A stretch of 64,000 nucleotides of DNA from Candidatus Dormibacteria bacterium (GTDB lineage: Bacteria; Chloroflexota; Dormibacteria; Aeolococcales; Aeolococcaceae), in assembly GCA_051002895.1 (NCBI GenBank), contig JBPCLW010000042.1, positions 120,927-184,926 on the forward strand, given 5' to 3'. Under the pieces are notes generated by a model, which worked only from the letters and a program-made list of their open reading frames with translations, did no database searches and had not been told where the DNA came from. Below, piece by piece: positions 2,179-60,998 of this stretch. Position 1 is the stretch's first letter. Each line of letters starts with the position of its first letter. Both the position numbers and the translations under genes were made by a program.

Positions 2179-2230
2179 CTGCATCCTATTCTGGCGGCTC
2201 TGGCGGCAGCCTGGTGTGGTCGCAGGGAGA

Positions 2231-2306: not shown

Positions 2307-2389
2307 TCGCGGTGCCAGGATACCGGGACTTCCCCGGGCCGGGTGGTCCGACGAGGACGATGAGGCCATCCACTCAAGGAGAATTTCCC

Positions 2390-4403: not shown

Positions 4404-4461
4404 GGAGAGAGTATCCTCCGACTGAGGGAGACGCGGCTCTGGTCGCTCGCCGTCCGAGTTT

Positions 4462-5010
4462 TCAATCACCGTTAGCATGCGCCTCGCGCGATTCTGGACG
4501 GTGGTGTCGGCCCGCCGCGGCAAGGGCAGCCTTGCGGATCAGCCGGTGTTCGCGTCGCACTCGCGCCTGGGCCTGCCGGCGCCGCTCCTCGTCTGTCTCG
4601 GCGATGACCGAGGGGACCGGCGCGGGCGCTCCCTGGGCGTCGAGACCCACAAACACCAAGTGGGCGCTGGCCACGTAACGGGTCTCGCCGGTCGGCACGG
4701 TTTCGACGTCGACGCGGACGCCCACCTCCATCGAGGTCCGGTGGGCATCGTTGACCATCGCCTGCACGGTCACGAGGTCGCCGATGAACACGGGGGCGAG
4801 GAAGCTCATGTCGTCCATTGACACGGTGACAACGCGGCGGCGAGCATGCTTCATCGCTGCTGTGCCGGCGGCGGTATCGACCATGCGCATGATCGTTCCC
4901 CCATGGACGTAGCCGGCATTATTGGCGTGCTGAATCTCCATCACCTCGCTGATCACGATGCGAGAGGTCGCGGCTGGACGCGGCGAGAGATCGGGTTTGT
5001 CGGGAAAGCG
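4462..5010 (-). CDS. acyl-CoA thioesterase (hotdog fold, YciA-like)
   Basis: HANNAGYVHGGTIMRMVDTAAG block. The start is uncertain: the listed ORF start at 5100 overlaps the upstream M20 gene. Confidence 0.7.
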   Translation of the reverse strand, partial: RFPDKPDLSPRPAATSRIVISEVMEIQHANNAGYVHGGTIMRMVDTAAGTAAMKHARRRVVTVSMDDMSFLAPVFIGDLVTVQAMVNDAHRTSMEVGVRVDVETVPTGETRYVASAHLVFVGLDAQGAPAPVPSVIAETDEERRRQAQARVRREHRLIRKAALAAAGRHHRPESREAHANGD

Positions 5011-6230: not shown

Positions 6231-6663
6231 CGCCGGGGAGCAGCTCAGCGAGTTCATTGGCCTGGGTCAAGCGGATGGCGGCCTCACCAAGAAAGCGATT
6301 GGCGATGACGCTGCTTGCGCCAGCCTCCATGCCGCGGCGCCGGAGATCGCTGGCGCCGTGGTGACAGAAGCCGACGATGGTGCGCTGGGGATTGGCGGCG
6401 CGGAGGCGCGAGATGGCTCCAAGCCGATCGTCGGCATCCCTGTTGAGATCGACAAACACGACCTGGCTGTCCGGAAGCAGGTCGGCGTCCTTCGCGTTGG
6501 CAATCGCGATGCCGCCTGGCGCCAGTGCGGCCTGCAGATGACTGCCGAAGATCAGGTCGCCGCTCAGCAGGGCGACGACAGCGGACGCGGCAGGATCGGA
6601 CATCTCCGGCAATGGTAGGCCCGGACCGGCAGAGGCCGTCATTAGGGCAAGCCCGGCCGCCAC
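6223..6663 (-). CDS. hypothetical protein with a receiver-like (CheY-like) C-terminal region
   Basis: VVFVDLNRDADDRLGAISRLRAANPQRTIVGFCHHGASDLRRRGMEAGASSVIANRF resembles the beta3-alpha3-beta4-alpha4-beta5 segment of response-regulator receivers, but the N-terminal acidic pair is missing. Start uncertain. Confidence 0.35.
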   Translation of the reverse strand: MAAGLALMTASAGPGLPLPEMSDPAASAVVALLSGDLIFGSHLQAALAPGGIAIANAKDADLLPDSQVVFVDLNRDADDRLGAISRLRAANPQRTIVGFCHHGASDLRRRGMEAGASSVIANRFLGEAAIRLTQANELAELLPGDD

Positions 6664-6722
6664 ACCACCCGTGGCCTCCGCCAGACTTCCCGCAAGACCA
6701 CACTGGACGAGGAGAGCGACGC

Positions 6723-7574
6723 ATGGCAGCGATCAGTACGGTTGGCGTCGTCGGCGCCGGGCTCATGGGCTCGGGCATCGCCGAGGTCTGTGCTCGCAAT
6801 GGCCTCACCACACGGGTCGTCGAGGCGGGGGCCGAGGCACTGGAGAGTGGTCGCACGCGCACGGAGCGGTCGCTCGCCCGCGCTGTCGAACGGGGCAAGC
6901 TCGGCGACGGGGAGAGCCAGACAATCCGACAACGCATGAGCTTCAGTGTCGACCTTGAGGATCTCGGCGATTGTGATATCGTCATCGAAGCCATCATCGA
7001 GCGGCTCGACGACAAGATGGAATTGTTCGGCAAACTCGGCAATATTGTTACGGATACTGCCATCCTTGCCACGAACACCTCAGCGCTGCCGATCGTAGAG
7101 ATCGCCCGGGCAACGCGTCGGCCGGAACGTGTCATCGGCACCCACTTCTTCAATCCCGCACCGGTGATGCAACTGCTCGAGCTGGTGCGCACCATCTCCA
7201 CAAGCGACGAGACCTTCGAGACGGCCAAGGCATTTGGTGAACGTCTCGGCAAGCGCGTCATCGTGGCCCAGGACCGCGGCGGCTTCATCGTTAACCTCCT
7301 ACTCATCCCCTTTCTCACCAGCGCGGTCCGTCTCTATGAGTCGGGATTCGCGAGCCGGGAGGACATCGACGAAGGAATGCACCTCGGCTGTGGTCACCCC
7401 ATGGGGCCACTGCAACTTCTCGATTACATCGGCCTAGATACCGCCCTCTTCGTCTGCAATGCGCTGTACGAGGAATACGCCGTCCGTGACTACGCCGCAC
7501 CGCCCCTGCTCAAGCGGATGGTCGCCGCGGGCTATCTCGGGAAGAAGAGCGGGCGCGGCTTTTACGAGTATTAG
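6723..7574 (+). CDS. hbd: 3-hydroxybutyryl-CoA / 3-hydroxyacyl-CoA dehydrogenase
   Basis: VGVVGAGLMGSGIA Rossmann motif, NTSAL and HFFNPAP blocks; the listed ORF is trimmed to MAAISTV. Confidence 0.9.
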   Translation: MAAISTVGVVGAGLMGSGIAEVCARNGLTTRVVEAGAEALESGRTRTERSLARAVERGKLGDGESQTIRQRMSFSVDLEDLGDCDIVIEAIIERLDDKMELFGKLGNIVTDTAILATNTSALPIVEIARATRRPERVIGTHFFNPAPVMQLLELVRTISTSDETFETAKAFGERLGKRVIVAQDRGGFIVNLLLIPFLTSAVRLYESGFASREDIDEGMHLGCGHPMGPLQLLDYIGLDTALFVCNALYEEYAVRDYAAPPLLKRMVAAGYLGKKSGRGFYEY

Positions 7575-7581
7575 TCGCGGA

Positions 7582-8013
7582 TCAATTGGGCCGGTGGGTC
7601 ACGCTGGAATCGACCGGCTGTTGCTGCTCGGCGACCACCAAAGGCAGGCTCTGCAGAAGCCGATCCCCGCCCCAGAATCCGGCGCTGTATTGACCGGGCT
7701 CACCGAATGTCGGGTTCATGTACGTCACGGTGCTAACCGTAACCTGCTGCTGGCCGTCCGGCAGAGCACCCGCGGCTTGGAACTGCAGGTTCGCCACCGG
7801 AAGGACGAGTTTGCCCAGCGCGTCAACGAATCGGAGTTCGACAGTGTGAGTGGCGTTGACGTCGGCCGCGAGGAATCGGAAACCCGCGACCACGGCAAAG
7901 CTTGCCCGTCCCGGCAACTGGGGAAGGGCGATGGCGCTGAAACCACCACCCAGCACATAGAGCTTGCCGTCGGGGGGAACCGTCGCGCTGTCGGCAAAGA
8001 ACGCAAAGCACAT
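7582..8013 (-). CDS. hypothetical protein
   Basis: Listed ORF with coding-like GC3 bias; no recognisable motif. Start trimmed to MCFAFF to avoid overlapping the divergent ferredoxin start. Confidence 0.4.
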   Translation of the reverse strand: MCFAFFADSATVPPDGKLYVLGGGFSAIALPQLPGRASFAVVAGFRFLAADVNATHTVELRFVDALGKLVLPVANLQFQAAGALPDGQQQVTVSTVTYMNPTFGEPGQYSAGFWGGDRLLQSLPLVVAEQQQPVDSSVTHRPN

Positions 8014-8051
8014 GTCCACTCCGGGAGCATGCCACGCTGGGGGACCATAGG

Positions 8052-8381
8052 GTGGTGACCCCACACAACGTCCACGTCTTCGTCTGCACCACCGCCGGCC
8101 GCCACCACTGCGGCGGGCAAGGCTCGGAGGCGATCCTTCAGCGCCTCCGCGACGCTGTCGAGGAGCGTGGGCTCGGCTGGGTGCGCACCACGAGGATGGG
8201 CTGCAATCAGCAGCATCATCAGGGCCCCATCCTCATCGTCTATCCCGAGGGCGTTTGGTACGGCCGCCTGCGCCCTCAGGATGTGGACGAGATCGTCGAG
8301 GAGCACCTCATCAACGGCCGTCCGGTCGAGCGTCTGCGCATCATCCCCGATGGCCCCTGGGCTACGACGGCTACGACCTGA
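8052..8381 (+). CDS. thioredoxin-like [2Fe-2S] ferredoxin
   Basis: VFVCTTAGRHHCGGQGS...GCNQQHHQGPILIVYPEGVWYG carries the Cys pattern of the thioredoxin-like 2Fe-2S ferredoxin family. Confidence 0.75.
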   Translation: MVTPHNVHVFVCTTAGRHHCGGQGSEAILQRLRDAVEERGLGWVRTTRMGCNQQHHQGPILIVYPEGVWYGRLRPQDVDEIVEEHLINGRPVERLRIIPDGPWATTATT

Positions 8382-8472
8382 GGGATCGCCCGGTCGCAGC
8401 AACCGAGGTCCCGCCTGGTACGGTGAGGGCAACGTCAACATCAAACCTCAACATCATCGGAAGGAGATCGAG

Positions 8473-8772
8473 ATGGGCTACATCCGCGGATTCGTGCATG
8501 GCACGGTCGTCGGCACCGTCGTTGGACTCTGTGTCGCACCCCAGACCGGCGACAAGACCCGTGCCCAGCTCGCCGGCTTCGGACGCGCCGCCCGCGAGGG
8601 TTATGGAGTTGCTGAGAAGACGGTCCGCCAGGTCGCTCCGATGGCGGGTGCTGCGGCCAGCCTCGCCCGCGAGCAACTTGGTCGCGCCCGTCGCTCGGCG
8701 GAGACCGACGATGACGGTGCGGTCATCGAGGGCAACGTACGCATTCACAGCGAAGGCAACGGTCGCCACTAG
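8473..8772 (+). CDS. YtxH / DUF948-like small stress membrane protein
   Basis: GGAAGGAG RBS followed by ATG; one N-terminal TM helix, then a charged helical tail. Confidence 0.6.
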   Translation: MGYIRGFVHGTVVGTVVGLCVAPQTGDKTRAQLAGFGRAAREGYGVAEKTVRQVAPMAGAAASLAREQLGRARRSAETDDDGAVIEGNVRIHSEGNGRH

Positions 8773-8790
8773 TCCTGTCGGGCGGCCCTC

Positions 8791-9219
8791 TTAGCCGCGG
8801 ATGATCGAGGCCGGGAGTTCGTCCTCGACGGTCCCGAGAGCGGCGAGCAGACCCAGGACGCCGACGACGGTGTCAAGGATGTTCATCGCCGTGGGGAAGT
8901 GCAGGCCGGCGATGGCGCGGCCTCCCGCATCGGTGTCGCCAACGACGAAGCCGGCGATGCCGAGGATCAGGAGGAATGCGCCCACTGCCCCCATCGCCCA
9001 TCTGCCGGCGTGCCGGGGGGCCAGGAAGCCGATCCAAATCAGCGCCGCCACGAGAACGACGTCGAGTGCGTCTCGCACGTAGGTCAGGTGAAGCTGGATG
9101 CTCCCGAGGTTGCCATTGGCCTGGCCGTTGACGACGTGCGATGCATCACCGAGAAAGACCCCGCCAACGGCGAGGGCAACGAAGAGAAGCGTGCAGAGCT
9201 GGGCGTAGAAGCGGGCCAT
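8791..9219 (-). CDS. DUF4383-like integral membrane protein
   Basis: Four predicted TM helices, 142 aa. Confidence 0.55.
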   Translation of the reverse strand: MARFYAQLCTLLFVALAVGGVFLGDASHVVNGQANGNLGSIQLHLTYVRDALDVVLVAALIWIGFLAPRHAGRWAMGAVGAFLLILGIAGFVVGDTDAGGRAIAGLHFPTAMNILDTVVGVLGLLAALGTVEDELPASIIRG

Positions 9220-9330
9220 AGTTGGAGAATGTGTGCTCGGACGACGACGGTGCCGGCCGCATCCGCGTGGGTGAGACGGCGAGGCTGGCGATGATAGCCG
9301 GAGGTCGCGCGTCGATGCGCAGTCAGCTCG

Positions 9331-10056
9331 TCACCGGGATACTTCCGCAGCGACCACGGTAGCGTCGTCCAGGGAACCGGCGTCGATCGCGGCCTGGACC
9401 AACCAGTCGGTGCGCTGGACGATGGGCGCCTCTGCCATGACGGTGGCCGCGATGGTCTCATCGCTCAGAGCTTCCCAGACGCCGTCGGTGCAGAGGACTA
9501 GCAGATCCCCAGGAAGGAGGTCCACCTCAGTGATGTCAGGAGCCATCGCCTCGCCGAGGACGGCGCGGGTCACGATGTTGCGCTTGGGGTCATGGCGAGC
9601 AGCGCTCTCGGGAAGCAGGCCCGCCCGAATCTGCTCGCCCACCCAGCTGTGATCAGCGGTGACCGGAATCGCCAACCCGCCGCGCACGCAGTAGGCGCGG
9701 CTGTCGCCGAGGTTGGCGACCAGAGCCCCGCTACGGCTCACCCAGGCGACGACCAGGGTGGTTCCCGGGTGATCGCCAATGCGGTCGCGGAGCTGTGCCA
9801 CCGCGGCGTCGGCTGCTGCCACCGCGCCTCCGAGCCGTGGCCGCGGATCGCCGGGGCCGGCGAGGATGAGCGCCGACGCACTCACCGCGGCGTCGGCCGC
9901 TTCGGCACCCCCGGCGTGGCCGCCCATCCCGTCTGCAATGACGATCACGACGTCGCCGTTGGCGGCGGCAAACGCGGCGAAGCGGTCCTGATTCTCAGTG
10001 CGGATCGGACCCTTCTCGCTGTGCCCTGCGGCAAGGATCCCGCCGCTCTCCACCAT
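9331..10056 (-). CDS. PP2C-family Ser/Thr protein phosphatase
   Basis: RTENQDRF...ADGMGGHAGG...LCTDGVW PP2C motifs; start trimmed to MVESGG. Confidence 0.8.
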   Translation of the reverse strand: MVESGGILAAGHSEKGPIRTENQDRFAAFAAANGDVVIVIADGMGGHAGGAEAADAAVSASALILAGPGDPRPRLGGAVAAADAAVAQLRDRIGDHPGTTLVVAWVSRSGALVANLGDSRAYCVRGGLAIPVTADHSWVGEQIRAGLLPESAARHDPKRNIVTRAVLGEAMAPDITEVDLLPGDLLVLCTDGVWEALSDETIAATVMAEAPIVQRTDWLVQAAIDAGSLDDATVVAAEVSR

Positions 10057-12769: not shown

Positions 12770-12842
12770 TCGGGGCGCCCAGGCTCGAACTGGGGACCTC
12801 CAGCTCCCAAAGCTGGCACGCTACCAACTGCGCCACGCCCCG
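12770..12842 (-). tRNA. tRNA-Pro (anticodon TGG)
   Basis: Reverse complement cggggcgtggcgcagttggtagcgtgccagctttgggagctggaggtccccagttcgagcctgggcgccccga folds as a cloverleaf: anticodon loop TTTGGGA, T-loop GTTCGAGCC; no encoded CCA. Confidence 0.8.
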
Positions 12843-32863: not shown

Positions 32864-33889
32864 ATGGTGCTCAGAGGTCTCAACGCGACGCCGACGGCCG
32901 CGGGGCCGACCCCTCCTGCTACCCGGTTGAACCGACGGCTGGTGGGTGGCGCAGCTGCTGTGGTGATCCTCGCTGTGCTCGCCGGCCTCACCTACTCGTT
33001 AGCACTCAGCCTCACCGCCATGACCCCGGGTGCACTACAGGCAACCATCATGGCCATCGTGTCGTTTGCACTCGTCGCGACGATCTTTGCCGCTCTGGAA
33101 CACGTCTCTCCGGAACAGAGCGTCCGTCGCGAGTGGCGCCAGCGGGAGCGCAGGGCCGACGTGTGCTGGTGGTTCGTGGGCTATGGCTCACGCTTCGCTG
33201 CTGATATCACCACCTTCGTATGCATCGCGCTCATTATCCGCGTGCTCCCCGACCATCCGACTGCCATGGTCAACACGCAGCCCCTATGGCTGCAGATGAT
33301 CGAGGCGCTGCTGATCGGCGACTTCCTCCAGTACTGGGTGCATCGCTGCCTTCATAGTCGACGGCTCTGGTCGGTCCATGCCATCCATCATTCGCCCGAG
33401 GACTTGAACTGGCTCTCAGCGACGCGGATCCATCCGCTGGAAGTCATCCTCAAGGGGCCGATCGAAATGGCGCCGCTGTACTTCCTGGGGTTCTCGTCGG
33501 CGGCCACGCTGCCCTTGGTGGTGATCGTCCTAGGTCTCTACGAGCTCTTCCTGCACGCCAATGTCGGTTGGCGTTTCGGTGCGCTTCGATTCGTCATCGC
33601 CTCCCCAGCCTTCCATCGGTGGCATCACACTGCGGAGGTGGAGGGATTTGACAAGGACTTCGCTGGCCTGTTCCCGTTCTACGACCTTGCATTCGGGACA
33701 TACTTCCTGCCCGATCGGGCCTCCTCGGCCTACGGACTGGGCAGAGGGCAGCGCATGTCGTCGAGTTTCTGGCGCCAACTCATCAACCCGGGTCATTCGG
33801 CCGTGGATACCATCCCGACAGCGCGGAGGCGCTTGTCCAGTGTCGACAACATCGCAACGCTGACGCGGCCGACGTCAGCCGAGAGTTGA
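32864..33889 (+). CDS. fatty acid hydroxylase / sterol desaturase-family membrane di-iron enzyme
   Basis: Histidine boxes HRCLH, HAIHH and HRWHH, plus TM helices. Confidence 0.7.
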
Positions 33890-35908
33890 GAGGCCCCGCA
33901 TCAACTCGGCGAAATCCGCGAACGAGAGACTCTGCTCGGCGTCACTGAGAGCATGATCGGGGTCGGGATGGACCTCGATGAGCACGCCATGGGCGCCGAC
34001 AGCCCGCGCAGCCCGCGCCATGGGCGCGACGTAGGGACGGTATCCGGTGCCATGACTGGGATCCACGATGACCGGAAGATGAGTGCGCTCCCTGAGCACG
34101 CAGACCGCCGAGAGGTCCAGCGTGTTACGGGTGGCGCTCTCGAAGGTGCGAATACCCCGCTCACAGAGGATGACCTGCTGGTTACCGTGAGAAAGGATGT
34201 ATTCGGCGGCGCCGAGCCATTCCTCGATGGTGCTGGAGAGACCACGCTTCAGCAGTACCGGGCGGTCAACCTTGCCGAGTTCCCGGAGAAGGTCGAAGTT
34301 CTGCATGTTGCGAGCGCCGACCTGGAGAACGTCCACCTTCTCGGTCATGCGCGCCACCTGCTCCACCGCCATTACCTCGCTGATGATCGGCAGCCCATGA
34401 GCGCGCCCCGCAGCGTGCAGCATGTCCAGACCCTCCCACGCGCGGCCCTGGAATGCATACGGCGACGTCCGCGGCTTGAAGACCCCACCGCGGAGAATGT
34501 GGGCGCCGAGATCACGGACGGCGCGAGCGGTTGCATCCACCTGTTCAGCAGACTCGACCGCGCAGGGGCCGGCCATGACCACGAAGCCATCCCCCCCCAC
34601 CAGAGTGTTTCCGACACGGATGACCGTATCCTGGGGTCGCGTCGCGCGACTCGCCAATCGATAGTTCTTCGACGGCTTGACTGCGGGTGCCGACCGGGGG
34701 GAGGCGTTGGCGGCGACCGTGGCGGCGGCACGCGGATGCCCGCCGGCGGGTACCCGCCCCGTCTGGGGCTCGGCACTAGTGGCGGTCGCCGGGTAACTGC
34801 CGAGCACTTTGAGATGCAGGGCCGCACTGCGCACTTCATCAAGCGCGTCAAGCGTCGCCTGGTCGGCGATGTTACCCATGATGTCGATGAAGAACATGTA
34901 TTCCCACGGCCGTCCTGGTCGCGGTCGCGACTCCAGCTTGGTCATGGAGAGGCCGTTGCCGGAGAGAATCTCCAGGCAGCGGAGCAGTGCGCCCTGCTCA
35001 TGCCGGGTGCCGATGATGAGACTCGTTTTGCAGGGAACGCGAGGATCGATGGCTTCCGGACTCTGCGCGAGCACCACGAACCGGGTGTGGTTCTCCTCCT
35101 GGTTGGCCACCGATCGGCGCAGGATCACCAGCCCCGCTGCATCCGCTGCCTGGGCCGAGCCGATCGCCGCCTGGGCAGCGTCGCTCTGCTCGGCGACGAA
35201 TCGCATGGCGCCAGAGGTGTCGAAGTGAGGCACCGCAATGGCATGCGGTAGCGACTGGATGAATTCCGAGCACTGGTCGAGCGCCATGGGATGCGAGAGA
35301 ATGCGCTCCAGGGCTGAGAGCGGCACCTCGGCCACCCCCGCCAGGCAGTGATCAGCTTTCCAGGTCTCCTCGCCAACGATGGAGAGTTCTCGCTCGCGGA
35401 GCAGGTTGTAAACCTCGGTGATGCTTCCCGCGGTGGTGTTTTCGATGGGAGCGACGACGAGGTCGAGGTCGCCGCTCAGAAGAGCATCAACGGCAGCGGC
35501 AAAGCTCCGAAAGCCGGTGAGCGAACCGTCCAGCTGACGTCCCGACATGTACTTCTGGGCGGCGAGGTGACTGTAGGCAAACTCGACGCCCTGGAAGCCA
35601 ACCCGCACCTCTGCGCCGCGTGCGCCACGGAGGTCGGCGGCCTGGCGGATGACGGATTGGCTGAGCAGTTCCTCGAAGATGCGGCGCACCAACGGAACGG
35701 GAACACCGCGCGCACGCGCCGTCCGCTCCACGCCCTCCAACACCTCTCGCTCGCGCTGGTGATCGCGAATGGCCGCCACTGAGCCCTGCTTCTGAGCGGC
35801 AACAGAGGCGATGACGTTGAATCGCTCGGCGATGAGATCGACGAGTTGGGCGTCGACAGAGTCTAGGCGCTCCCGGAGTGCGGAGAGGTCGGCGACGGAG
35901 TCTTCCAC
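33875..35908 (-). CDS. tri-functional fusion: chorismate mutase (AroQ) / prephenate dehydratase + ACT / type I-beta DAHP synthase
   Basis: N-terminus [20 protein letters not shown] is chorismate mutase. [17 protein letters not shown]...ENTTAGSI plus a regulatory ACT region is prephenate dehydratase. A Pro/Ala-rich linker follows. C-terminus [10 protein letters not shown]...[18 protein letters not shown]...[10 protein letters not shown]...VDPSH is DAHP synthase I-beta. Confidence 0.8.
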
Positions 35909-37711: not shown

Positions 37712-40648
37712 TCAGCTGGCAGGATAGAGCACCGCGTCAGCCACCGCGAAGATCTTCATCCCGGCGTCGTCGAACTTGATGACGACCTCCTCGCCGGAGC
37801 GGGTCATCGTCGACTTGAGAACGGTGCCCGAGCCAAACTTCGGATGCTCGACACGGTCACCTTGCCCGTACCGCTGTGGCGCGCTCTCCACGGGATTGGC
37901 GCGAACAGCATGAGCGTGTACGGCATCGCGGACAGCCCCGGGGGTCCGTGGCGCCACCGGGCTCGGGCCACCGGGTCGTCGGCGCACGTCGAGAAGCTCG
38001 GCAGGGATCTCGGCAAGGAAACGCGAGGCCTCAGCCAGGTGGGCGGCGCCGTAGAGGTGGCGACGGTAGGCGTGCAGTAGGTAGAGGCGGCGCTGGGCAC
38101 GGGTGACCCCGACGTAGGTGAGGCGGCGCTCCTCGGCAATCCCCTCGTCGCCCTCCTCGAGCGCCCGGACATGGGGGAGCAGCCCTTCCTCAAGGCCCGC
38201 CATGAATACGATAGGAAATTCCAAGCCCTTCACCTGGTGCAGGGTGATGAGGGTGACCCCCTGGGCGTTGTCGTCCATGGTGTCGACGTCGCTGACCAGG
38301 GCGACGTTCTCGAGAAACTGCTGCAGCCCCTCGGGCGCGGCGATGTCGGCGTACTCGCCGGCCAGGCCGACGAGTTCCAGCACGTTATTCCAACGTTCCT
38401 CGCCCTCGGGGGTCCCGTCGCGCACCATCGACTGATAGCCGGTCTCGGCAAGCACCCGATCGACGAGCTGAGGCACGGGCAGCCGCGCCGCCAGGCCGCG
38501 AAGGCTCTCGACCAGTTCAAAGAAGTGGGTGAGCGACTGCACCGCCGCCGGGGTCATGCTGGCCTCACCGCTCAGGTGCTGGGTAGCTTCGAACGGCGAG
38601 ATCCTCTTGCGCCGGGCGACCTTCTCCAGCTCCCTCACCGTCTTGTCCCCGATCTTACGGCGGGGCACGTTGACAATCCGGCCGAAGGACACTGCGTCCC
38701 TGGGGTTGGCGAGCAGCCGCAGGTAGGCGAGAACGTCCTTGACCTCGCGGCGCTCGTAGAAACGCATGCCTCCCACCAACCGGTAGGGGATTCCGCGGCG
38801 CAGCAGCACCTCCTCGAAAGCGCGCGACTGGGCGTTGGTGCGATACAGAACCGCGCAATCGGCCAGCGAGGACGAGCCGCCCCCGATGAGGCTCTCGATC
38901 TCGCTGCAGATCGCCATCGCCTCCTCCTGCTCGTCGTACACCGTGATGAGGCGAACAGGCTCACCGCCGCTAGTCTCGGTCCACAGCCTCTTGGCGGCGC
39001 GCCCGGTGTTGCGACTGATGACAGCGTGGGCGGTGTCGAGAATCTGCTGGGTGGAGCGATAGTTCTGCTCCAGGGTGACCACCTGAGCGTCAGGATAGTC
39101 GCGGCGGAACTCGAGGATGTTGCGGATGTCCGCGCCGCGCCAGCGATAGATCGAGTTATGGGTAACGATGTCGTTGGCGATATAGTTGTGCGTGTTCTGC
39201 ACATCGATGTCATAGACATCGCCGTCATATGGCAGCCTTTCGACGCTCTCAACCTCGTCCCAGCCGCCATCAGCGTCAACCATGACCATGCCCGGATGGA
39301 CTGAGGCTGCGGGAACCAGCGGAAGCGAGTTCGAGCCGCAGTATCCAGCGAGGTTGTGACCGAGGCGGGCCACTTGGACGATGTGACCGCCCAGAGCAAC
39401 TCTCAAGCGCTCCGCGGTCGCGAGGACCGCCCCGAGGTCCTTCGCGGCTGTCTCGTGACGCCAGCTCTGGCCACCCTTCCGTGACGGCCGCACCGAGAGC
39501 CCCAGCCGGCGGATTGTCATCGCCCCCGTCTCGTCGTTGCCGACAACGGAGAGTCGGTGCATCGGCGTAGCGCCACGCTTGTCGCTACAGAGAGTGACCA
39601 CGATGTTGCGGCGACTGCTGTTGCGCGACTGTGGTCGGTGGTTGCGCTCAAGGCCAGGCCGGTACCCGCTGAAGTGCGTGTGCTCGGGCGTACTGACCAC
39701 CTCGCGACCGGCTGCGGTGCGGATCCTGACAACTTCCCCACGTGCCCGACGCCGGACGGAGCGCATGACCTGTGCCGGCCGGAAGGTTCCGCTACCTGCG
39801 GCAGACAGAACCGTGTCACCGGCCCGAATCGTCTCAATCGATCTCGTACTGCCGTCGGAGAGCGTCACGGCTGTCCCGGCCACCATGCACTGGTCATCGT
39901 CCCCCACCACCGTGAGGTTGCGATGCGACGCCGCCAGCAGCGACACCATCAGGTACTGGGAATGGTTGGTGTCCTGGTACTCGTCGACGAAGACGTGCCG
40001 CCAGCGCCGCTGATAGTGCTCGAGGACAGGGGGCACATCGCGGAGCAGTTGCACCGGGCGCATGAGCAGATCATCGAAGTCGAGCGCAGCGGCGGCGCTC
40101 ATCTCCGCCTCGTAGGCGCGGTACGCCTTGGCGACCTCGGCCTCGTAGGATCCCAGAGCCTTGGCCTGGTACTCGGCGGCGGTCAGCATCTCGTTCTTCG
40201 CGGCACTGACTTGGTGGACGACCTTGGCTGCGGGGAAGCGCTTCTCATCGAGACCAATCGATTGGATGGCTCGGCGCATCGCCGACACCCGATCAGCCTC
40301 GTCGTAGATCGAGAACGTCGAGGGGATGCCGATGGCATCACCGTCGCGGCGGAGGATGCGGGCACCGATGGCGTGGAAGGTACCCAGCCACATCCCCGCC
40401 ACCGATTCACCCAAGAGTTCCTCGACCCGGCTGCGCATCTCCCGCGCCGCCTTGTTGGTGAACGTCACGGCAACGATCTCGTTGGAGCGGACGCCGCGCG
40501 CGCCGATGACGTGAGCGATTCGGTGGGTGAGCACCCGCGTCTTGCCACTTCCAGCGCCGGCGAAGATGAGCAGCGGCCCATCAGGAGCCTCAACCGCCTC
40601 GCGCTGGGCAGGATTCAGGGTGGCGAGCAGTGGATCGATGACGGTCAC
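37712..40648 (-). CDS. pcrA: ATP-dependent DNA helicase PcrA/UvrD, interrupted by an in-frame intein
   Basis: GAGSGKT (motif I), DEYQDTN (motif II), VVGDDDQ then intein then SIYRWRGA (motif III), plus downstream UvrD motifs. The extein is ~733 aa once the 245-aa intein is removed. Start set at GTG 40648, just after the stop of the upstream C-N hydrolase; the listed ORF start at 41032 is an over-extension. Confidence 0.9.
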   Translation of the reverse strand: MTVIDPLLATLNPAQREAVEAPDGPLLIFAGAGSGKTRVLTHRIAHVIGARGVRSNEIVAVTFTNKAAREMRSRVEELLGESVAGMWLGTFHAIGARILRRDGDAIGIPSTFSIYDEADRVSAMRRAIQSIGLDEKRFPAAKVVHQVSAAKNEMLTAAEYQAKALGSYEAEVAKAYRAYEAEMSAAAALDFDDLLMRPVQLLRDVPPVLEHYQRRWRHVFVDEYQDTNHSQYLMVSLLAASHRNLTVVGDDDQCMVAGTAVTLSDGSTRSIETIRAGDTVLSAAGSGTFRPAQVMRSVRRRARGEVVRIRTAAGREVVSTPEHTHFSGYRPGLERNHRPQSRNSSRRNIVVTLCSDKRGATPMHRLSVVGNDETGAMTIRRLGLSVRPSRKGGQSWRHETAAKDLGAVLATAERLRVALGGHIVQVARLGHNLAGYCGSNSLPLVPAASVHPGMVMVDADGGWDEVESVERLPYDGDVYDIDVQNTHNYIANDIVTHNSIYRWRGADIRNILEFRRDYPDAQVVTLEQNYRSTQQILDTAHAVISRNTGRAAKRLWTETSGGEPVRLITVYDEQEEAMAICSEIESLIGGGSSSLADCAVLYRTNAQSRAFEEVLLRRGIPYRLVGGMRFYERREVKDVLAYLRLLANPRDAVSFGRIVNVPRRKIGDKTVRELEKVARRKRISPFEATQHLSGEASMTPAAVQSLTHFFELVESLRGLAARLPVPQLVDRVLAETGYQSMVRDGTPEGEERWNNVLELVGLAGEYADIAAPEGLQQFLENVALVSDVDTMDDNAQGVTLITLHQVKGLEFPIVFMAGLEEGLLPHVRALEEGDEGIAEERRLTYVGVTRAQRRLYLLHAYRRHLYGAAHLAEASRFLAEIPAELLDVRRRPGGPSPVAPRTPGAVRDAVHAHAVRANPVESAPQRYGQGDRVEHPKFGSGTVLKSTMTRSGEEVVIKFDDAGMKIFAVADAVLYPAS
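39155..39889 (-). mobile_element. intein (245 aa) inserted in PcrA helicase motif III
   Basis: Begins with Cys (CMVAGTAVTLSDG). TPEHTHF matches intein block B. The terminal ...VYDIDVQNTHNYIANDIVTHN has His-Asn at the C-terminus. The +1 extein residue is Ser. No LAGLIDADG or HNH endonuclease motif is evident. Confidence 0.8.
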
Positions 40649-40655
40649 GCTCGGG

Positions 40656-41531
40656 TCACGAGGCCGGTGCCACTCCTCGGTGTGGCGCGTCGACCAGCTC
40701 AGCGCGGTAGGCGCCCTCACGACGGTCATCGAGAAGGTGGTTGCGCGGGGTGCGCTGGCGTGCCGCCTCCACGGAGTCGAGGTCGACATCGGCGACGAGC
40801 AGCTCCGGCTCGGACGCGCTCGCGGGACCGGCAACCGGCCAGCCGTCGGCCCCGACGATGAGCGAGTTACCAAGGAAGCTCGTGCCCCGCTCAGTGCCCA
40901 CCCGATCAGCGCAGGCGACCACAGTGCCGTTCGCCGCCGCGGCCGCGATGGCCATGTAGTTGCCCTGGATGTACCCCTGAGCGTCGTAGACAGTGCGCTT
41001 GAACGATGCCACCCAGTTCGTCGGGACCGCAATGATCTCCGCGCCCGCGAGAGCGAGGGCGCGCGCCACCTCGGGAAACCAGATATCGAAGCAGATCATC
41101 ATCCCCACGCGACCGAATGGGAGATCGACGATCGGGAGGCCGTCGCCCGCTCGGAACCATGACCGTTCGTCGTGGAAGAGTTGGACCTTGCGGTACGTGG
41201 CAACATGGCCCGACGGCCCCACCAGGATTGCGGAGTTGAAGCGGCCGTCGCCACCGCGCTCATTGAGCCCGCTGATGACGTGGAGGTCGTAGGCCCGGGC
41301 AACGGCGAGGAGAGCATCGGTGAAGGGCCCGTCGATGGACTCGCTGAGCTGCTCCGCCTCCGCCTCCGACTGAAAGACATAGCCGCTCGAAGCGAGCTCA
41401 GGCAGTACCACGAGTTGGGCTCCGGCCACTCCAGCACGGTCGGCCCAATGCACCGCCGCAGCACGGTTGGCCTCCAGATCCCCGACGGCGAGTTGGTACT
41501 GGGCGGCGGCGATACGGACGGGTCGAGCCAT
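40656..41531 (-). CDS. carbon-nitrogen hydrolase (nitrilase superfamily) protein
   Basis: VVLPELASSGY places the catalytic Glu; MMICFDIWFPE places the catalytic Cys; the Lys region is present; 291 aa. Confidence 0.85.
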   Translation of the reverse strand: MARPVRIAAAQYQLAVGDLEANRAAAVHWADRAGVAGAQLVVLPELASSGYVFQSEAEAEQLSESIDGPFTDALLAVARAYDLHVISGLNERGGDGRFNSAILVGPSGHVATYRKVQLFHDERSWFRAGDGLPIVDLPFGRVGMMICFDIWFPEVARALALAGAEIIAVPTNWVASFKRTVYDAQGYIQGNYMAIAAAAANGTVVACADRVGTERGTSFLGNSLIVGADGWPVAGPASASEPELLVADVDLDSVEAARQRTPRNHLLDDRREGAYRAELVDAPHRGVAPAS

Positions 41532-41722: not shown

Positions 41723-44407
41723 CTACCCGAGTCTGACAGCCTCACCATCTTCTACGGCAGCGCGCTCGCCATTCTGCGGCAGTGACCGAATGCGGCGGAG
41801 CACCGCGAACGGGGTCTGTTCATCCGTCTGACCCAGAGGGTTGTCGGCGAAGAGCGCCCCCAACGCGGGACGATCGATGCTGCGGCTGGTCCCGAGGATG
41901 TCTGCCGCGAGGTCATTGGTGTCGACGACGGCGACGTCGACGTCCACTCCGCTGCGTTTCAGCAGCATGCCAGCGACCTCCCCCGCAACGCGATCGGCGT
42001 CCTCGGGCGCCTTCGAGGCATGGGTGTTGTACGGCGGGATGGTGTGCGCTGTCGGTCCATCGATAGCCGCTACATTCGGGCCGGCGACGCGGTAGAACAC
42101 GCCCCGCACCCCCAAGGGGCGGGTGACCGCAGCAGCGGCGGCGGCGGCGATGATGCGGGGAACGCCCGCTTCCTCGATGGCAAGTTGCATGGTCTGGGGA
42201 CGGCCAAGGCCGATACCGATGGGTACTCGACTCACAAACCTCGAGAGCAGGCGAGCCAGAGGCGTCACCGCAATCTCGTCCATGGGCAGAGAGCGGCCCT
42301 GGGTGATCGACACCACCTTCTCGCTGAGGGCAACGACGTCCCCATCCTCGAGCTGGACGCCGCGTTCAGCCAGACCTCGGAGCGCATCGATCAAGGTGCG
42401 GCCCAGGTCGTCGCCGGGCCTCACCAGCGACGACCGCACAGGAATTCGTGCCCACGTCTGCGCGCCACGTTGGATGAGCAGATGGCGTCCGGGATTGGGC
42501 GACACAGCTGCAAGCAGAGGTTGCGCGGTGGTACCAGGGGCGGCGGCACGGTCACCGCGACCAACAAAGCCGAGATGCCAGCTTGAGTCATCCAGAGAGC
42601 GTGCCTGGGAGTCAATGTACAAACGCATCCAGATTTCGACATTGACGGCGCGCCAGAAGAACATCGACTCCTCGCTGCCGCCGGCGCAGGCAACGCGAAA
42701 TGCGTCGGCAACGCGCTCGGCATTCCAGAAAGGACGGGAGGCGAAACTGGGCGAGCGCATCAGCGATTGGATGGCGGGGCGCTGCTGCCGGAACCAGCGA
42801 AACTCCGGCGTGGTGAAGCCGATCTTCTTGCGCCGCGTCCGCACCCTTTCCGGGAGAAGCCCGCGGAACCCGTCACGGAGGATGGCACGGCTCCAGCCGC
42901 CACCAACCAGAGCCGATGCGGGCAGGCGAAGGATCCATTCCACGAGTTCCTGATCCAGGAAGGGCAGCCGCGACTCCACGGAGTGCGCCATCGAGTTGCG
43001 ATCCTCATAGCGCAGCAACGAGGGCAGGCTGAAGGTCTGGAGATCCTGGAGCAGCCGCTTTTTCAGGTCGTCCTGTATGCGTGGATCACAGGGGGTGCGC
43101 AGTTCACGCGTCCAGGTCTTGCGGAGCAGCGAAGGGACGCGCACTCCGCGCCGCCGCTCCCAGAGCCGGCGTCGTACCAGGGGACCGACGGTATCGAGAG
43201 CCTTGGCGGACTCCCGAGCAAAGTCAACGTAGCGCTTGTCGCGGAGGAGCTGGCGCAGGTAGACGTACTGGTACGGGACGTAGCCGGCGAGGAGCTCGTC
43301 ACCCGCCTGACCGTCGAGCAGCACGGTGACCTTCTCACTCGCCGCCCGCATCACCGACCACATCGCGTACGGCGCTGTACTGACCATCGGCTCCTCGGCG
43401 AACCAGATCCAAGCCTCGAGTTCCTCGATCCACTGTTCCGAGGTCGGCTTCACCCACGTTGGATCGGCCGCGGTCACCGCCAGCACCGCGTCCATGTACG
43501 GCTTCTCATCGATGGGATCACCGGGGAAAATCGCGGAGAACGTCTTCAGTCGGCCTCCCAGTGACGTCGAATCGGGAACCCTCGCCGCGAGCAGCTGGTC
43601 CATGACGCAAACGATCGATGAGGAGTCGAGCCCACCGGAGAGACACGTTCCCACGGGTACGTCAGCGACGAGCCGTCGCTCCACTGCCTTGGTGAAGAGG
43701 CGGCGGAACTCCGCCGGATCGGGATCGGCGTCCTCGTTGAGGACGGGATCCCAGTATCGATGCACGCTGACGCCGCCACCATCAACGACGGCGTAGGCCG
43801 CCGCCGGCACCTGCTGGATGCCGGCGAAAAATGTCAGGTCGTTGTGGTCGTAGAGTCCCCAGGCCAGGTACTCGTAGAGTTGCTGCTCGTCGACGCGGCG
43901 CGGGAACGTCGCATCCTGAAGGATTGACTTGATCTCCGACGCGAAGACCACACGGTCGTCGTGCTGCGCATAGAAGAGCGGCTTGATGCCGAAGTGGTCA
44001 CGGCAGAGGATGAGGCGCGGTTCACTTCCGCGCTCGTCGAGCAGCGCCAGGGCCCACATTCCGTTGAAGCGCGAAAAGGCGGTTGGTCCCCAGGCGGCGA
44101 AGGCGTGGAGCGCAACTTCGGTGTCAGAACTGGTCTGAAAGGTGCGGCCCTGCGCCTCGAGATCAGCGCGCAACTCGCGATAGTTGTAGATCTCGCCGTT
44201 GTAGATGATGGTGAGCCGGCCGCCATCGGTCGAGATCGGCTGGTCACCCGTGGCCAGGTCGATGATCGAGAGCCGGCGAAAGCCCAGACTGGCCGCGGAA
44301 GTCTCGTGGAAGCCATCACCGTTGGGCCCGCGATGCAGCTGCGCAGCAGTCATGTCGCGAAGGAGCGCGCTATCGCGACGGCCGTAGAACCCGCAGATCC
44401 CGCACAT
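41723..44407 (-). CDS. glutamine-hydrolysing asparagine-synthetase-type amidotransferase fused to a C-terminal CofE-like (F420-0:gamma-glutamyl ligase family) domain
   Basis: N-terminal MCGICG Ntn-glutaminase nucleophile; SGGLDSS PP-loop in the synthetase domain. C-terminal ~270 aa contains VRPGDDLGRTLIDAL...LEDGDVVALSEKVVSITQGR and VDVAVVDTND, matching CofE/FbiB N-domain blocks. Confidence 0.8.
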   Translation of the reverse strand: MCGICGFYGRRDSALLRDMTAAQLHRGPNGDGFHETSAASLGFRRLSIIDLATGDQPISTDGGRLTIIYNGEIYNYRELRADLEAQGRTFQTSSDTEVALHAFAAWGPTAFSRFNGMWALALLDERGSEPRLILCRDHFGIKPLFYAQHDDRVVFASEIKSILQDATFPRRVDEQQLYEYLAWGLYDHNDLTFFAGIQQVPAAAYAVVDGGGVSVHRYWDPVLNEDADPDPAEFRRLFTKAVERRLVADVPVGTCLSGGLDSSSIVCVMDQLLAARVPDSTSLGGRLKTFSAIFPGDPIDEKPYMDAVLAVTAADPTWVKPTSEQWIEELEAWIWFAEEPMVSTAPYAMWSVMRAASEKVTVLLDGQAGDELLAGYVPYQYVYLRQLLRDKRYVDFARESAKALDTVGPLVRRRLWERRRGVRVPSLLRKTWTRELRTPCDPRIQDDLKKRLLQDLQTFSLPSLLRYEDRNSMAHSVESRLPFLDQELVEWILRLPASALVGGGWSRAILRDGFRGLLPERVRTRRKKIGFTTPEFRWFRQQRPAIQSLMRSPSFASRPFWNAERVADAFRVACAGGSEESMFFWRAVNVEIWMRLYIDSQARSLDDSSWHLGFVGRGDRAAAPGTTAQPLLAAVSPNPGRHLLIQRGAQTWARIPVRSSLVRPGDDLGRTLIDALRGLAERGVQLEDGDVVALSEKVVSITQGRSLPMDEIAVTPLARLLSRFVSRVPIGIGLGRPQTMQLAIEEAGVPRIIAAAAAAAVTRPLGVRGVFYRVAGPNVAAIDGPTAHTIPPYNTHASKAPEDADRVAGEVAGMLLKRSGVDVDVAVVDTNDLAADILGTSRSIDRPALGALFADNPLGQTDEQTPFAVLRRIRSLPQNGERAAVEDGEAVRLG

Positions 44408-46638: not shown

Positions 46639-47322
46639 TCACCCGAGCGAGGTCTCCACCCAGACACAGGCAGCGACCGCCCACGGCACCGCCAGTTGAC
46701 GGTCGCCTCGCCGCACGCTGAGGGGATCACCCGTGGCCACCACCTCGACGACGGCTCCAGGAACCAGCCCGAGGGTGTGCAGGGAGTCGAGCAACTGCGG
46801 GGCGTCGTGCTCCGCGACCTCGGAGACCCGCACCACCGTGGCCCCTGCCCCCTCGGAGAGGGCGGCGAGGCTGACCAGGGCGGCGGGATTCTGGCCGCGA
46901 CCGGGGATGTGATTGCCGTGGGGACACGTCGCCGGCTTCCCAAGGTGGGCATCGAGTCGCTCGAGGACGAGATCAGAGAGCCCCTGGGCGAGGGCCTCGG
47001 CTTCCTCGTCTGCGGTGGCCCAGTCGAGACCGAGAACATCGACGAGCCAGCGCTCGAGAATCCGATGCCGGCGCACGATGCGCGAGGCAGCGGCGTGCCC
47101 GGCATCGGTGAGACGCACGCTGCGATCGCTCTCCACCTCGAGCCAGCCGTCACGGACGAGCCGCTGCAGGGTGACGCTGACGGTGGGGGCGCTCACCCCC
47201 ATCCATTCCGCGATCCGGCCGGGTCGAGCCACTCCCCCCTCATGGACGATGTAGTAGATCGTCTCGAGGTAGCGTTGCGCTGTGTCGCTCAGGGGCGCCT
47301 GAGTGGTGGAATCGAGCGCCAT
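46639..47322 (-). CDS. ideR: DtxR/IdeR-family metal-dependent transcriptional repressor with C-terminal SH3-like (FeoA) domain
   Basis: YLETIYYIVHEGG...RIAEWMGVSAPTVSVTLQRL HTH, metal-site residues, C-terminal SH3-like domain; trimmed to MALDST. Confidence 0.85.
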   Translation of the reverse strand: MALDSTTQAPLSDTAQRYLETIYYIVHEGGVARPGRIAEWMGVSAPTVSVTLQRLVRDGWLEVESDRSVRLTDAGHAAASRIVRRHRILERWLVDVLGLDWATADEEAEALAQGLSDLVLERLDAHLGKPATCPHGNHIPGRGQNPAALVSLAALSEGAGATVVRVSEVAEHDAPQLLDSLHTLGLVPGAVVEVVATGDPLSVRRGDRQLAVPWAVAACVWVETSLG

Positions 47323-47347
47323 GTCCCGATGGTACGCGTCGTCGGGC

Positions 47348-47551
47348 TCAGTCCTGGACGGCGTCGCGGAAGCGCAGGAGGATCTCCCCGGCCTCGCCGA
47401 TGGCCATCTCGTCGTGGGCGTCGAGCGGTTGCAAGGACCGGAGTTGTTCCATCGCTGCCTCAACGTCAGCGAGAGCGGGTAGTTCGAGACGGCGCTCGAC
47501 CGGAAGGAGCCCGTTGGCGATGCGGCGGGCCTCACGAGCGGTGTCGCTCAC
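47348..47551 (-). CDS. small hypothetical protein (67 aa)
   Basis: Listed ORF sitting between ideR and the upstream hypothetical gene; no motif. Confidence 0.25.
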   Translation of the reverse strand: MSDTAREARRIANGLLPVERRLELPALADVEAAMEQLRSLQPLDAHDEMAIGEAGEILLRFRDAVQD

Positions 47552-59726: not shown

Positions 59727-60998
59727 TCACCCCACCGACCCCCGCCCCGGGCGCAGGCCTTCGAGGGTCCGCCGCAGCCGCTCCTGAGCGACGGGCAGCG
59801 CGTCGACGACGTCGCCCGCCAAGCCCCCCGCCCGGCCCCGCTGGGACTCGACGATGCACCCCGCCTCGGCATGGATGGTCACCGCGGCGACCGCGGCGTC
59901 GAAGACATCGAGACCACCAGCGAGCATGGCCCCACAGAGACCGGCGAGGACGTCACCGGTGCCGCCCGTTGCCAGGGCGACGGTGCGATGACCGTCAACA
60001 TGTGTGCGGCCGTCGGGGGCGGCAACGACCGTCCCCGCGCCCTTGAGGACGACCACGACGCCGCACTGCGTGGCGTACCGGGAAGCGACGCCATCGCGAT
60101 CACCCTGTACTGCGCCGATGTCAGTGCCAACCAGCCGAGCCATCTCCGCGGGATGAGGCGTGATCACCACCGGTCTATTGCAGCGATGCCAATCGAACCC
60201 CTGCGCGGCAGCGATGTTGAGGCCATCAGCGTCCACAACAAGGGGCGCGGTTGTGATGGCAGGGAGCAGGTCGGCGAGCGCCATCTCCGTCCCAGGGTCA
60301 CGCCCCAAGCCGGGCCCGACCACCACCGCGGAGGCGTCGCCAAGCTGCTTGTCGAGGAGGGCGGCAACCGCCCGCCGACCCAGCCCAGTGGTGCCGTTCT
60401 CGTCGACCGGAAGGGCTTGGGCCATCACCTCGAGGCACATGGGGGCGACCGTGGCGTAGATGGCGTCCGGAACGCACAGCCGCACCTTGCCAGCTCCGCC
60501 CCGGGCGGCACCGAGGGCAGCAAGCACAGCCGCTCCGGCGGTTCCCGGCGACCCGGCGATCAGAGTGACTGTTCCGAAGGTGCCCTTATGCCCGTCGGCG
60601 GGACGCTCGGGGAGTCGCAGGCCGGGCGGTGGGGGGAGCGCTGGGGCGCCCCAGAGCCCGTCGTCGGCGGTGGCCGCCACGGCAATGGCGAGCCCGGCAT
60701 CGTGGGTGAGAGTGAGGGCGATATCGGTGTCCATTCCTCCGATACGGATCATGGGAGCGCCGCCGCGACGATTGACGACCTCGATCGAGCGATAGGTCGG
60801 GATGGGCACCCCCCGACTGCCGCAAAGCTTCTTGACCGCTTCCTTGGCCGCCCAGCGGCTGGCAAATCGCTCGATCTTGGCACCACAGCGGCGTCGCTCA
60901 GTCGCGGTAAAGATCTTTTCGGCGAATCGAGGACGGCGTTGCAGGACGCCGGCGATGCGCTGAATCGAGGTGATGTCGACGCCGATCGCAACTGCCAT
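59727..60998 (-). CDS. fusion of holo-ACP synthase (AcpS) with ADP-dependent NAD(P)H-hydrate dehydratase (YjeF C-terminal domain)
   Basis: N-terminal ~120 aa (VAIGVDITSIQRI...WAAKEAVKKL...IRIGGMDTDIALTLTHDAGLAIAVA) is 4'-phosphopantetheinyl transferase. After a Pro-rich linker, HKGTFGTVTLIAGS...GGTGDVLAG is the YjeF_C carbohydrate-kinase-like domain. Confidence 0.8.
   Translation of the reverse strand: MAVAIGVDITSIQRIAGVLQRRPRFAEKIFTATERRRCGAKIERFASRWAAKEAVKKLCGSRGVPIPTYRSIEVVNRRGGAPMIRIGGMDTDIALTLTHDAGLAIAVAATADDGLWGAPALPPPPGLRLPERPADGHKGTFGTVTLIAGSPGTAGAAVLAALGAARGGAGKVRLCVPDAIYATVAPMCLEVMAQALPVDENGTTGLGRRAVAALLDKQLGDASAVVVGPGLGRDPGTEMALADLLPAITTAPLVVDADGLNIAAAQGFDWHRCNRPVVITPHPAEMARLVGTDIGAVQGDRDGVASRYATQCGVVVVLKGAGTVVAAPDGRTHVDGHRTVALATGGTGDVLAGLCGAMLAGGLDVFDAAVAAVTIHAEAGCIVESQRGRAGGLAGDVVDALPVAQERLRRTLEGLRPGRGSVG

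Follow-up and report, generated by a model that had tools for sequence, protein, structure and literature searches.

A fusion of chorismate mutase, prephenate dehydratase, ACT and DAHP synthase modules in a Dormibacteria genome and the protein family to which it belongs

[quoted passage not shown] Here we describe a gene in a 64,000-nucleotide stretch of a Candidatus Dormibacteria genome (contig JBPCLW010000042.1, positions 120,927 to 184,926 of the forward strand), the whole of which we refer to as the window. The predicted product of 677 residues, which we call the fusion protein, carries CM, PDT and ACT modules followed by a type I-beta DAHPS. The gene and its single frame are genuine, and we consider it quite probable that the one polypeptide has DAHPS, CM and PDT activities, with the ACT domain acting as a Phe sensor.

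The regulated forms of type I-beta DAHPS that have been described bear an N-terminal ACT-like domain, an N-terminal CM or a C-terminal CM (PMC8408635, PMC12202928), and the fusion protein has something in common with each. As in the DAH7PS of Thermotoga maritima (1RZM, 3PG9), the closest solved DAHPS, an ACT-fold domain lies N-terminal to the barrel, but the FXD domain of the Thermotoga enzyme is replaced by the whole of CM-PDT-ACT on a 33-residue tether. The CM-DAH7PS enzymes of Bacillus subtilis (AroA), Geobacillus and Listeria (5J6F, 3NVT) likewise have an AroQ CM N-terminal to a type I-beta barrel; in these proteins of ~360 residues the CM adjoins the barrel and works as a prephenate sensor (PMC8408635), whereas in the fusion protein ~280 residues of PDT-ACT intervene. 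The DAH7PS-CM enzymes of Prevotella nigrescens and Porphyromonas gingivalis, for which reciprocal allostery is documented (PMC8408635, PMC12202928), resemble it in that the enzyme of pathway entry is covalently joined to one of the branch point, but have the opposite order, a short linker and neither PDT nor ACT. Physical coupling of a DAHPS to an AroQ CM is also seen in Mycobacterium tuberculosis, in a non-covalent DAH7PS-CM complex where binding of Phe and Tyr to one partner controls the other (PMC10520331); unlike the fusion protein, that complex contains a type II DAHPS, is made of separate polypeptides and has no PDT.

Compared instead with the Escherichia coli P-protein PheA, residues 1-375 of the fusion protein show the same CM-PDT-ACT order, the same checked catalytic residues and Phe-binding motifs of the GALV/ESRP type, and the difference is the addition of ~300 C-terminal residues that constitute a full DAHPS. 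A precedent for the entire order is found in Shewanella oneidensis, in which Song, Bonner, Wolinsky and Jensen (2005, BMC Biol 3:13; PMC1173090) remarked on an aroQ-pheA fused to an aroA(I-beta) 'pseudogene'. That gene, which we know by its description, also has CM, PDT, ACT and a type I-beta DAHPS-like domain in this order, but its DAHPS part was called a pseudogene, whereas that of the fusion protein retains 12 of 12 checked residues and scores above the DAHPS cut-offs. Gamma-proteobacterial members with degraded barrels fall in the same sequence family as the intact protein. An earlier note on the window had implied that only CM-PDT and CM-DAHPS fusions were known; those forms are indeed known, but the present order was noted in S. 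oneidensis in 2005 and the intact form is already in the databases. In the literature searched, which takes in few of the papers in subscription journals, an enzyme with intact CM, PDT and DAHPS parts is neither described nor assayed. The protein is not categorically new, its order of domains having a precedent and the sequences being publicly available; it is best classed with the regulated forms of type I-beta DAHPS or, just as well, as a P-protein with an extension.

Reading frame and modules of the fusion protein

The gene occupies positions 33875-35908 of the window on the minus strand, precisely where the earlier note had placed a 677-residue open reading frame (ORF), and extends from a GTG start codon at 35908 to a TGA stop codon at 33875-33877. 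The GTG is the sole start codon 5′ of the codon for the catalytic Arg12, a residue needed by chorismate mutase. An identical protein is present in NCBI, its source a Candidatus Dormibacteraeota metagenome-assembled genome (MAG). A Pfam scan of the ORF yields four domains, all in one frame, and the proposed combination of a CM, a PheA-type PDT-ACT, a linker and a complete type I-beta DAHPS is borne out by Pfam and NCBIfam matches, by the functional residues and by an AlphaFold2 (AF2) model; the DAHPS motifs quoted when the fusion was proposed are all found in the translation. The modules, from the N terminus onwards, are as follows.

35633-35887, minus strand: AroQ (type II) chorismate mutase, residues 8-92 (Pfam CM_2, 8/8 residues, AF2 helices)
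35060-35605, minus strand: prephenate dehydratase catalytic domain, residues 102-283 (Pfam PDT, TRF motif, Foldseek)
34784-35032, minus strand: ACT regulatory (Phe-binding) domain of the PDT, residues 293-375 (alignment to PDT-ACT structures, motifs, AF2 topology)
34685-34783, minus strand: variable Ala/Pro-rich tether, residues 376-408 (low conservation, AF2 disorder)
33878-34684, minus strand: type I-beta DAHP synthase, residues 409-677 (NCBIfam, T. maritima alignment, residues, Foldseek)

Three of the Pfam matches lie above their cut-offs: CM_2 (PF01817) at residues 11-89 (58.7 bits against 27, E = 6.8e-16), PDT (PF00800) at 103-283 (160.9 bits against 25.2, E = 3.8e-47) and DAHP_synth_1 (PF00793) at 435-669 (258.8 bits against 25.5, E = 5.2e-77). 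The fourth, ACT (PF01842), is found at 305-359 with 18.9 bits (E = 1.3e-3), under its gathering cut-off of 27. The ACT assignment stands despite this weak match because PDT-ACT chains in the Protein Data Bank (PDB) align to the fusion protein as far as residue 373, the motifs GALL (306-309) and ESRP (326-329) are conserved, and the topology in the AF2 model is that of an ACT domain. For type I-beta DAHPS, the NCBIfam models NF006421 (425.9 bits against 335) and TIGR01361 (380.2 against 267.75) both exceed their cut-offs. NF007910, the equivalog model of E. coli-type P-proteins, aligns over residues 7-375 with 278.4 bits, under its cut-off of 577. NF009239, which represents the Bacillus-type DAHPS/CM, scores 393.6 bits against a cut-off of 279, yet its best stretch corresponds to profile positions 93-351 only, the DAHPS part.

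To score the functional residues, the fusion protein was aligned with 50 divergent representatives, 75 genome loci and 17 database-named proteins (12 of them from named isolates). None of the 29 catalytic and ligand-binding residues checked across its four modules is missing. The CM active site is complete (8/8), consisting of R12, R29, K40, D49, R52, E53, S85 and Q89, which correspond to R11′, R28, K39, D48, R51, E52, S84 and Q88 of the E. coli CM. The same is true of PDT (7/7), with E156, N157, S205, Q212 and the TRF motif T275-R276-F277, the counterparts of E. coli E159, N160, S208, Q215 and T278, and of ACT (6/6), with G306, A307 and E326-S327-R328-P329. The DAHPS module has all 12 residues (C449, K478-P479-R480-T481-S482, R533, K554, R584, H619, E645 and D656), and its metal ligands C449, H619, E645 and D656 match C102, H272, E298 and D309 of T. 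maritima in a gapless alignment. This alignment to residues 62-327 of the T. maritima enzyme is free of gaps over 266 residues, with 55-57% identity and 305 bits, and it takes in both the linker and the hairpin that come after the regulatory domain of that enzyme; the hairpin, a conserved element at the N terminus of type I-beta DAHPS, corresponds to residues 409-440 of the fusion protein and 62-93 of T. maritima.

There is no match at E ≤ 0.01 to the FXD ferredoxin-like domain (PF18152) anywhere in the fusion protein, tether included; the same model does detect FXD in two other fusions, P0145 and P0237. The alignment to NF006421 begins only at profile position 55, consistent with an absent FXD. 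Two other identities for the C-terminal domain were considered and rejected, that of a KDO8P synthase, for which the KdsA models score far under their cut-off (110 against 242), and that of NeuB, whose Pfam match is weak and overlaps the same barrel.

The low-complexity linker reported earlier exists, but it lies at residues 376-408 and not at ~395-450, a displacement of about 20-40 residues. Two homopolymers fall in this part of the gene, a run of six C at 34696-34701 in the tether and a run of eight G at 34591-34598 just inside the DAHPS part. Sequencing errors or slippage could arise at either run, but homology to PDT-ACT up to residue 375 and to DAHPS from residue 409 confirms the frame on each side of both. 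No in-frame ATG, GTG or TTG with a Shine-Dalgarno (SD)-like motif upstream occurs in or after the tether, which speaks against the read-through artefact that an internal ribosome binding site (RBS) or start codon at the linker would have indicated; the GC content of third codon positions (GC3) remains steady at ~0.77 across it.

The AF2 model, built from 150 intact family members, has a mean predicted local distance difference test score (pLDDT) of 87.7 and a predicted template modelling score (pTM) of 0.78, and pLDDT values below 50 are confined to residues 1-3, 390-406 and 481-486. A first model from 16 close homologues was poor (pLDDT 63.6, pTM 0.44) and was not used for the fold search. 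The CM is predicted as three long helices (8-41, 50-67 and 71-94), and the ACT domain has a beta-alpha-beta-beta-alpha-beta topology, with strands at 293-300, 322-330, 333-344 and 365-373 and helices at 307-317 and 350-362. By Foldseek, PDT and ACT match the Phe-bound PDT structures 2qmx, 6vh5 and 3mwb with a root-mean-square deviation (rmsd) of 2.8-3.6 Å over ~280 residues, and the barrel matches 1vs1, 1zco, 3nvt and 5j6f with an rmsd of 1.5 Å over ~255 residues; in addition, the ACT domain aligns, with no change of sequence order, to the FXD regulatory domain of the T. maritima enzyme. No solved structure among the PDB matches extends over both enzyme blocks. The model predicts a defined arrangement of the modules relative to one another, the pTM being 0.78 where ~0.45 is estimated for modules placed independently.

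Spread and decay of the layout within the family

When one genome per GTDB species was scanned, 80 loci were obtained, and 74 of these match over a single frame of 666-715 codons that contains no stop, with 38-68% identity to the fusion protein; of the other six, four run off the end of a contig, one matches in part only and one has an interruption. A single frame in so many species-representative genomes excludes the two-gene refutation that the earlier note had envisaged. The labels of the loci include Dormibacterota, Streptosporangiaceae or Actinomycetota (the latter two on MAGs), Myxococcales and other delta-proteobacteria, and Planctomycetota, as well as Acidobacteriota, Gemmatimonadetes, Krumholzibacteriia, Rhodothermales and KSB1. 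At the protein level, the best 120 clusters all share the Pfam set of CM, PDT and DAHPS (120/120), with 98-100% query coverage, 64-81% identity and lengths of 670-731 residues, and an exhaustive search of 1.84 billion representatives at 50% identity lists ~54 clusters whose match spans the full length, the lowest of them at 31% identity. Cultured isolates with an intact barrel include Stygiobacter electus (12/12 DAHPS residues) and Iodidimonas gelatinilytica (11/12).

The modules differ in their degree of conservation. In the intact members DAHPS is the most conserved module, with a mean pairwise identity of 0.69 vs 0.52, and the pairwise identities of the two halves rise and fall together (r = 0.94), a sign of co-evolution. 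The mean majority-residue frequency is 0.77 for the barrel and 0.32 for the tether, which ranges in length from 25 to 55 residues among the 150 intact members and from 12 to 75 in the wider family, the frame always being kept. Database names for these proteins are inconsistent: NCBI calls them bifunctional DAHPS/CM, DAHPS, CM, PDT or even KDO8P synthase, and JGI calls them CM/PDT. The first of the NCBI names arises because NF009239 exceeds its cut-off.

Loss of catalytic residues is frequent in the more distant members, and it affects different modules in different lineages. Among 50 divergent cluster representatives, 10 keep at least 11 of the 12 DAHPS residues and 40 keep 6 or fewer. These 40 still hold a recognisable barrel of ~270 residues together with intact CM, PDT, ACT and ESRP, and Pfam still scores the degraded barrels (171 bits in protein P0142 and 98 bits in locus L079). 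Isolates of gamma-proteobacteria with degenerate barrels (1-6/12) belong to Agarivorans, Aliagarivorans, Alginatibacterium, Corallincola, Marinobacter, Celerinatantimonas and Ferrimonas balearica; the proteins are P0142, P0276, P0277, P0279, P0282-P0284, P0286, P0287 and P0289, the degraded loci are L071 and L075-L079, and degraded family members overall have 0-6 of the 12 residues. Several of these dead-barrel proteins are called 3-deoxy-7-phosphoheptulonate synthase by NCBI all the same. In the degenerate members DAHPS is the least conserved module (mean pairwise identity 0.30 vs 0.43). Judged by its sequence, the degraded barrel looks like a retained pseudoenzyme domain, in line with the 2005 remark on the Shewanella 'pseudogene'.

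The converse loss is seen in nine loci labelled Myxococcales or delta-proteobacteria (L022, L032, L034, L035, L037, L038, L040, L064 and L043), in which the TRF motif of PDT (N-x-TRF) is replaced by MRY (ILMRY) and the catalytic Thr is lost. Eight of the nine retain 11 of 12 DAHPS residues; L043 retains 7. In L022, the one MRY locus whose surroundings were examined, a stand-alone intact PDT with NFTRF and ESRP (3786-4670) lies 1.3 kb upstream of the fusion (6001-8037). These loci suggest that PDT-ACT may there have been turned into a sensor for DAHPS. Two further loci, L065 (6001-8016) and L067 (6001-8007), have 2/8 and 4/8 CM residues respectively, with PDT and DAHPS intact, and in P0135 and P0139 the ESRP motif of ACT is gone and DAHPS is intact. 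On a rough neighbor-joining (NJ) tree of the P-protein module the degenerate forms are scattered among the intact ones, a pattern that suggests repeated decay; the ~20 intact/degenerate switches given by NJ and Fitch parsimony are a rough figure, drawn from 377 positions at deep divergence, and are not a number of events.

Other orders of fusion are also present in metagenomes. P0145 (625 residues) is an FXD-DAHPS-PDT-ACT protein without CM, confirmed by Pfam, and P0149, P0150, P0162, P0184 and P0202 share its pattern of HMMER matches. P0237 (714 residues), also confirmed by Pfam, has the order FXD-DAHPS-prephenate dehydrogenase-ACT. The orders of the P0145 and P0237 types imply more than one fusion of a type I-beta DAHPS to enzymes of the terminal branches.

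Proposed function and competing explanations

It is likely that all three activities of the fusion protein are real and that, as in P-proteins that stand alone, binding of Phe at ACT inhibits the P-protein part. The DAHPS is joined exactly where Thermotoga-type DAHPS bears its small ACT-like regulatory domain, through a tether of 25-55 residues, and by analogy we infer that the DAHPS domain may be under Phe control. That the P-protein module is also an allosteric gate of DAHPS has, on the same analogy, somewhat less than an even chance in our estimation. More tentative again is the suggestion that the family represents a fourth class of regulated type I-beta DAHPS, in which the entire CM-PDT-ACT would be the allosteric module and the barrel would in return scaffold the P-protein. 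A two-way structural dependence of this kind would explain both why dead barrels are kept and why PDT-ACT is kept where PDT catalysis has been lost. The keeping of modules after catalytic loss in various lineages is itself a hint, from the sequences, of structural or allosteric coupling; the arrangement of modules predicted by AF2 and the Foldseek match between ACT and the T. maritima FXD domain are further hints.

One mechanism would be that the DAHPS barrels form the usual tetramer core and the CM and PDT-ACT modules pair on its faces, so that Phe at the ACT pairs, or prephenate at the CM, could tighten the assembly over the barrel entrance. Precedents for such a model are the ACT-like domains of T. 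maritima, which latch over the barrel, and the CM dimers of Geobacillus and Listeria, which close over the tetramer on prephenate (PMC8408635). As DAHPS and CM are six pathway steps apart, no channelling of substrate between the two is expected, and the gain from fusion would be regulatory and stoichiometric.

Several observations weigh against the reading of a regulated three-enzyme fusion. The orientation of ACT to barrel in the AF2 model is unlike that in the T. maritima crystal forms (rmsd 11-16 Å), and the model is of a monomer. The correlation between the pairwise identities of the two halves among intact members (r = 0.94) is raised by clade structure, and a long and poorly conserved tether is what would be expected of a mere co-expression fusion too. 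No obvious RBS is present upstream of the gene, which sits outside any aromatic operon. Finally, feedback on DAHPS by Phe alone would starve the synthesis of Tyr and tryptophan unless other DAHPS isoenzymes exist.

Some of these points bear on the alternative that the three enzymes are fused without cross-talk, for equal expression only, with DAHPS unregulated on a flexible leash. Such an arrangement fits a tether that is long, variable and poorly conserved, with a core predicted to be disordered, and it fits the variable genomic context as well as the FXD-DAHPS-PDT-ACT and FXD-DAHPS-prephenate dehydrogenase-ACT fusions, which retain an FXD sensor of their own. We nonetheless regard it as unlikely, given that catalytically dead modules are kept in many lineages, that the pTM of the model is 0.78, that the characterised DAHPS fusions all show interdomain allostery (PMC8408635, PMC12202928) and that, with FXD absent, the entry step of the pathway would have no feedback whatever. 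A different possibility is that the protein is a DAHPS for which the P-protein module is chiefly a sensor, the CM and PDT flux coming from other genes, as in Bacillus, Geobacillus and Listeria, which have a separate AroH CM. The Myxococcales subgroup with MRY could be read this way, and L022 has its separate intact PDT nearby, but in the fusion protein all checked CM and PDT catalytic residues are intact and no second CM or PDT gene is found among 30 large ORFs scanned in the window, making this quite improbable for the Dormibacteria gene.

It is more improbable still that the fusion protein is a P-protein in which only CM and PDT are active and the DAHPS-like C-terminal part is a non-catalytic pseudoenzyme or scaffold. 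This form is common in the family (40 of the 50 divergent representatives, and the gamma-proteobacterial isolates) and has its precedent in Shewanella oneidensis (PMC1173090); the fusion protein, however, has 12 of 12 residues, scores above curated cut-offs and is 55-57% identical to the active T. maritima DAH7PS, and in its clade DAHPS is the most conserved module. An artefact in which adjacent pheA and aroA/aroG genes were merged, by a frameshift at the C or G run or by a lost stop codon, we think has scarcely any chance of being correct. The contig does come from a MAG, and the two runs lie in the tether and just inside the DAHPS part, but a single frame is present in 74 of 80 independent genomes under many phylum labels, and in cultured isolates, with differing tether lengths, and in the fusion gene itself the flanking homology fixes the frame, GC3 is continuous and no internal SD-like start is present. 

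Genomic neighbourhood and meaning for the family

The window is a housekeeping region of the chromosome, containing gap, pgk, iPGM, whiA, uvrC, ligA, pcrA, groEL, tsaD, alr and glmS, and the scan of its 30 large ORFs revealed no other aromatic-pathway gene. A gap of 46 nt separates the fusion gene from an ABC-2 permease and ATPase pair that precedes it on its own strand, and a fatty-acid hydroxylase-family gene converges on it with a 15-nt overlap. No consensus promoter or terminator sites were found near it with scan models that may not suit this phylum, and the only Rfam elements in the scan are two distant tRNAs, none being near the fusion gene. The context varies in other phyla, with aroB near the fusion in L048, a stand-alone PDT in L022 and a gene resembling prephenate dehydrogenase and PDT in L011. 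The last of these (8048-9406, minus strand) is an ORF of 452 residues that adjoins, and is convergent with, a Dormibacterota fusion gene; it has a prephenate dehydrogenase N-terminal domain and a PDT-like domain with TSF in place of TRF, and is without ACT.

Several other features of the window are recorded here. The two tRNA genes are at 2234-2306 and 12770-12842, both on the minus strand. The first overlaps the 5′ end of a listed short-chain dehydrogenase/reductase (SDR) ORF at 2165-3154 on the plus strand, and because of this overlap the true start of the SDR gene must be further downstream; its Pfam match begins at residue 84. A PcrA/UvrD-type helicase gene (37712-41032, minus strand) encodes an intein (Pfam Intein_splicing, residues 405-626) between UvrD-helicase and UvrD_C, and its listed start is probably too far upstream, the helicase domain beginning at residue 139. 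The ORF at 41723-44407 (minus strand, 894 residues) combines a glutamine-dependent asparagine synthase (GATase_7 and Asn_synthase) with an F420-0:gamma-glutamyl ligase-like domain at residues 657-831, an unusual pairing. At 59727-60998 (minus strand, 423 residues) a holo-ACP synthase (ACPS, residues 4-107) is followed by an NAD(P)H-hydrate dehydratase (Carb_kinase, residues 144-400), and at 46639-47535 (minus strand) there is a DtxR/IdeR-type iron-dependent repressor with a FeoA domain at its C terminus.

The fusion protein belongs to a large, phylogenetically wide and uncharacterised family of CM-PDT-ACT-DAHPS fusions. One practical consequence is that, because the names are inconsistent, metabolic reconstructions of Dormibacterota, Planctomycetota, Myxococcota, Ignavibacteria and others can miss one or two steps of the aromatic pathway, and dead-barrel proteins may be wrongly credited with DAHPS activity. 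DAHPS is a textbook case of allostery gained by domain recruitment, and an intact barrel bearing a whole P-protein would be a further solution, one that ties entry into the pathway to the Phe branch. With its intact, DAHPS-dead, PDT-Thr-lost, CM-altered and reversed-order members, the family offers natural experiments on how enzymes become regulators. The interest would be greater if the P-protein module gates DAHPS and the retained dead modules serve as scaffolds or sensors; were CM-PDT-ACT indeed an allosteric module, the family would be a record of enzymes turned, time and again, into pseudoenzymes that regulate or act as scaffolds.

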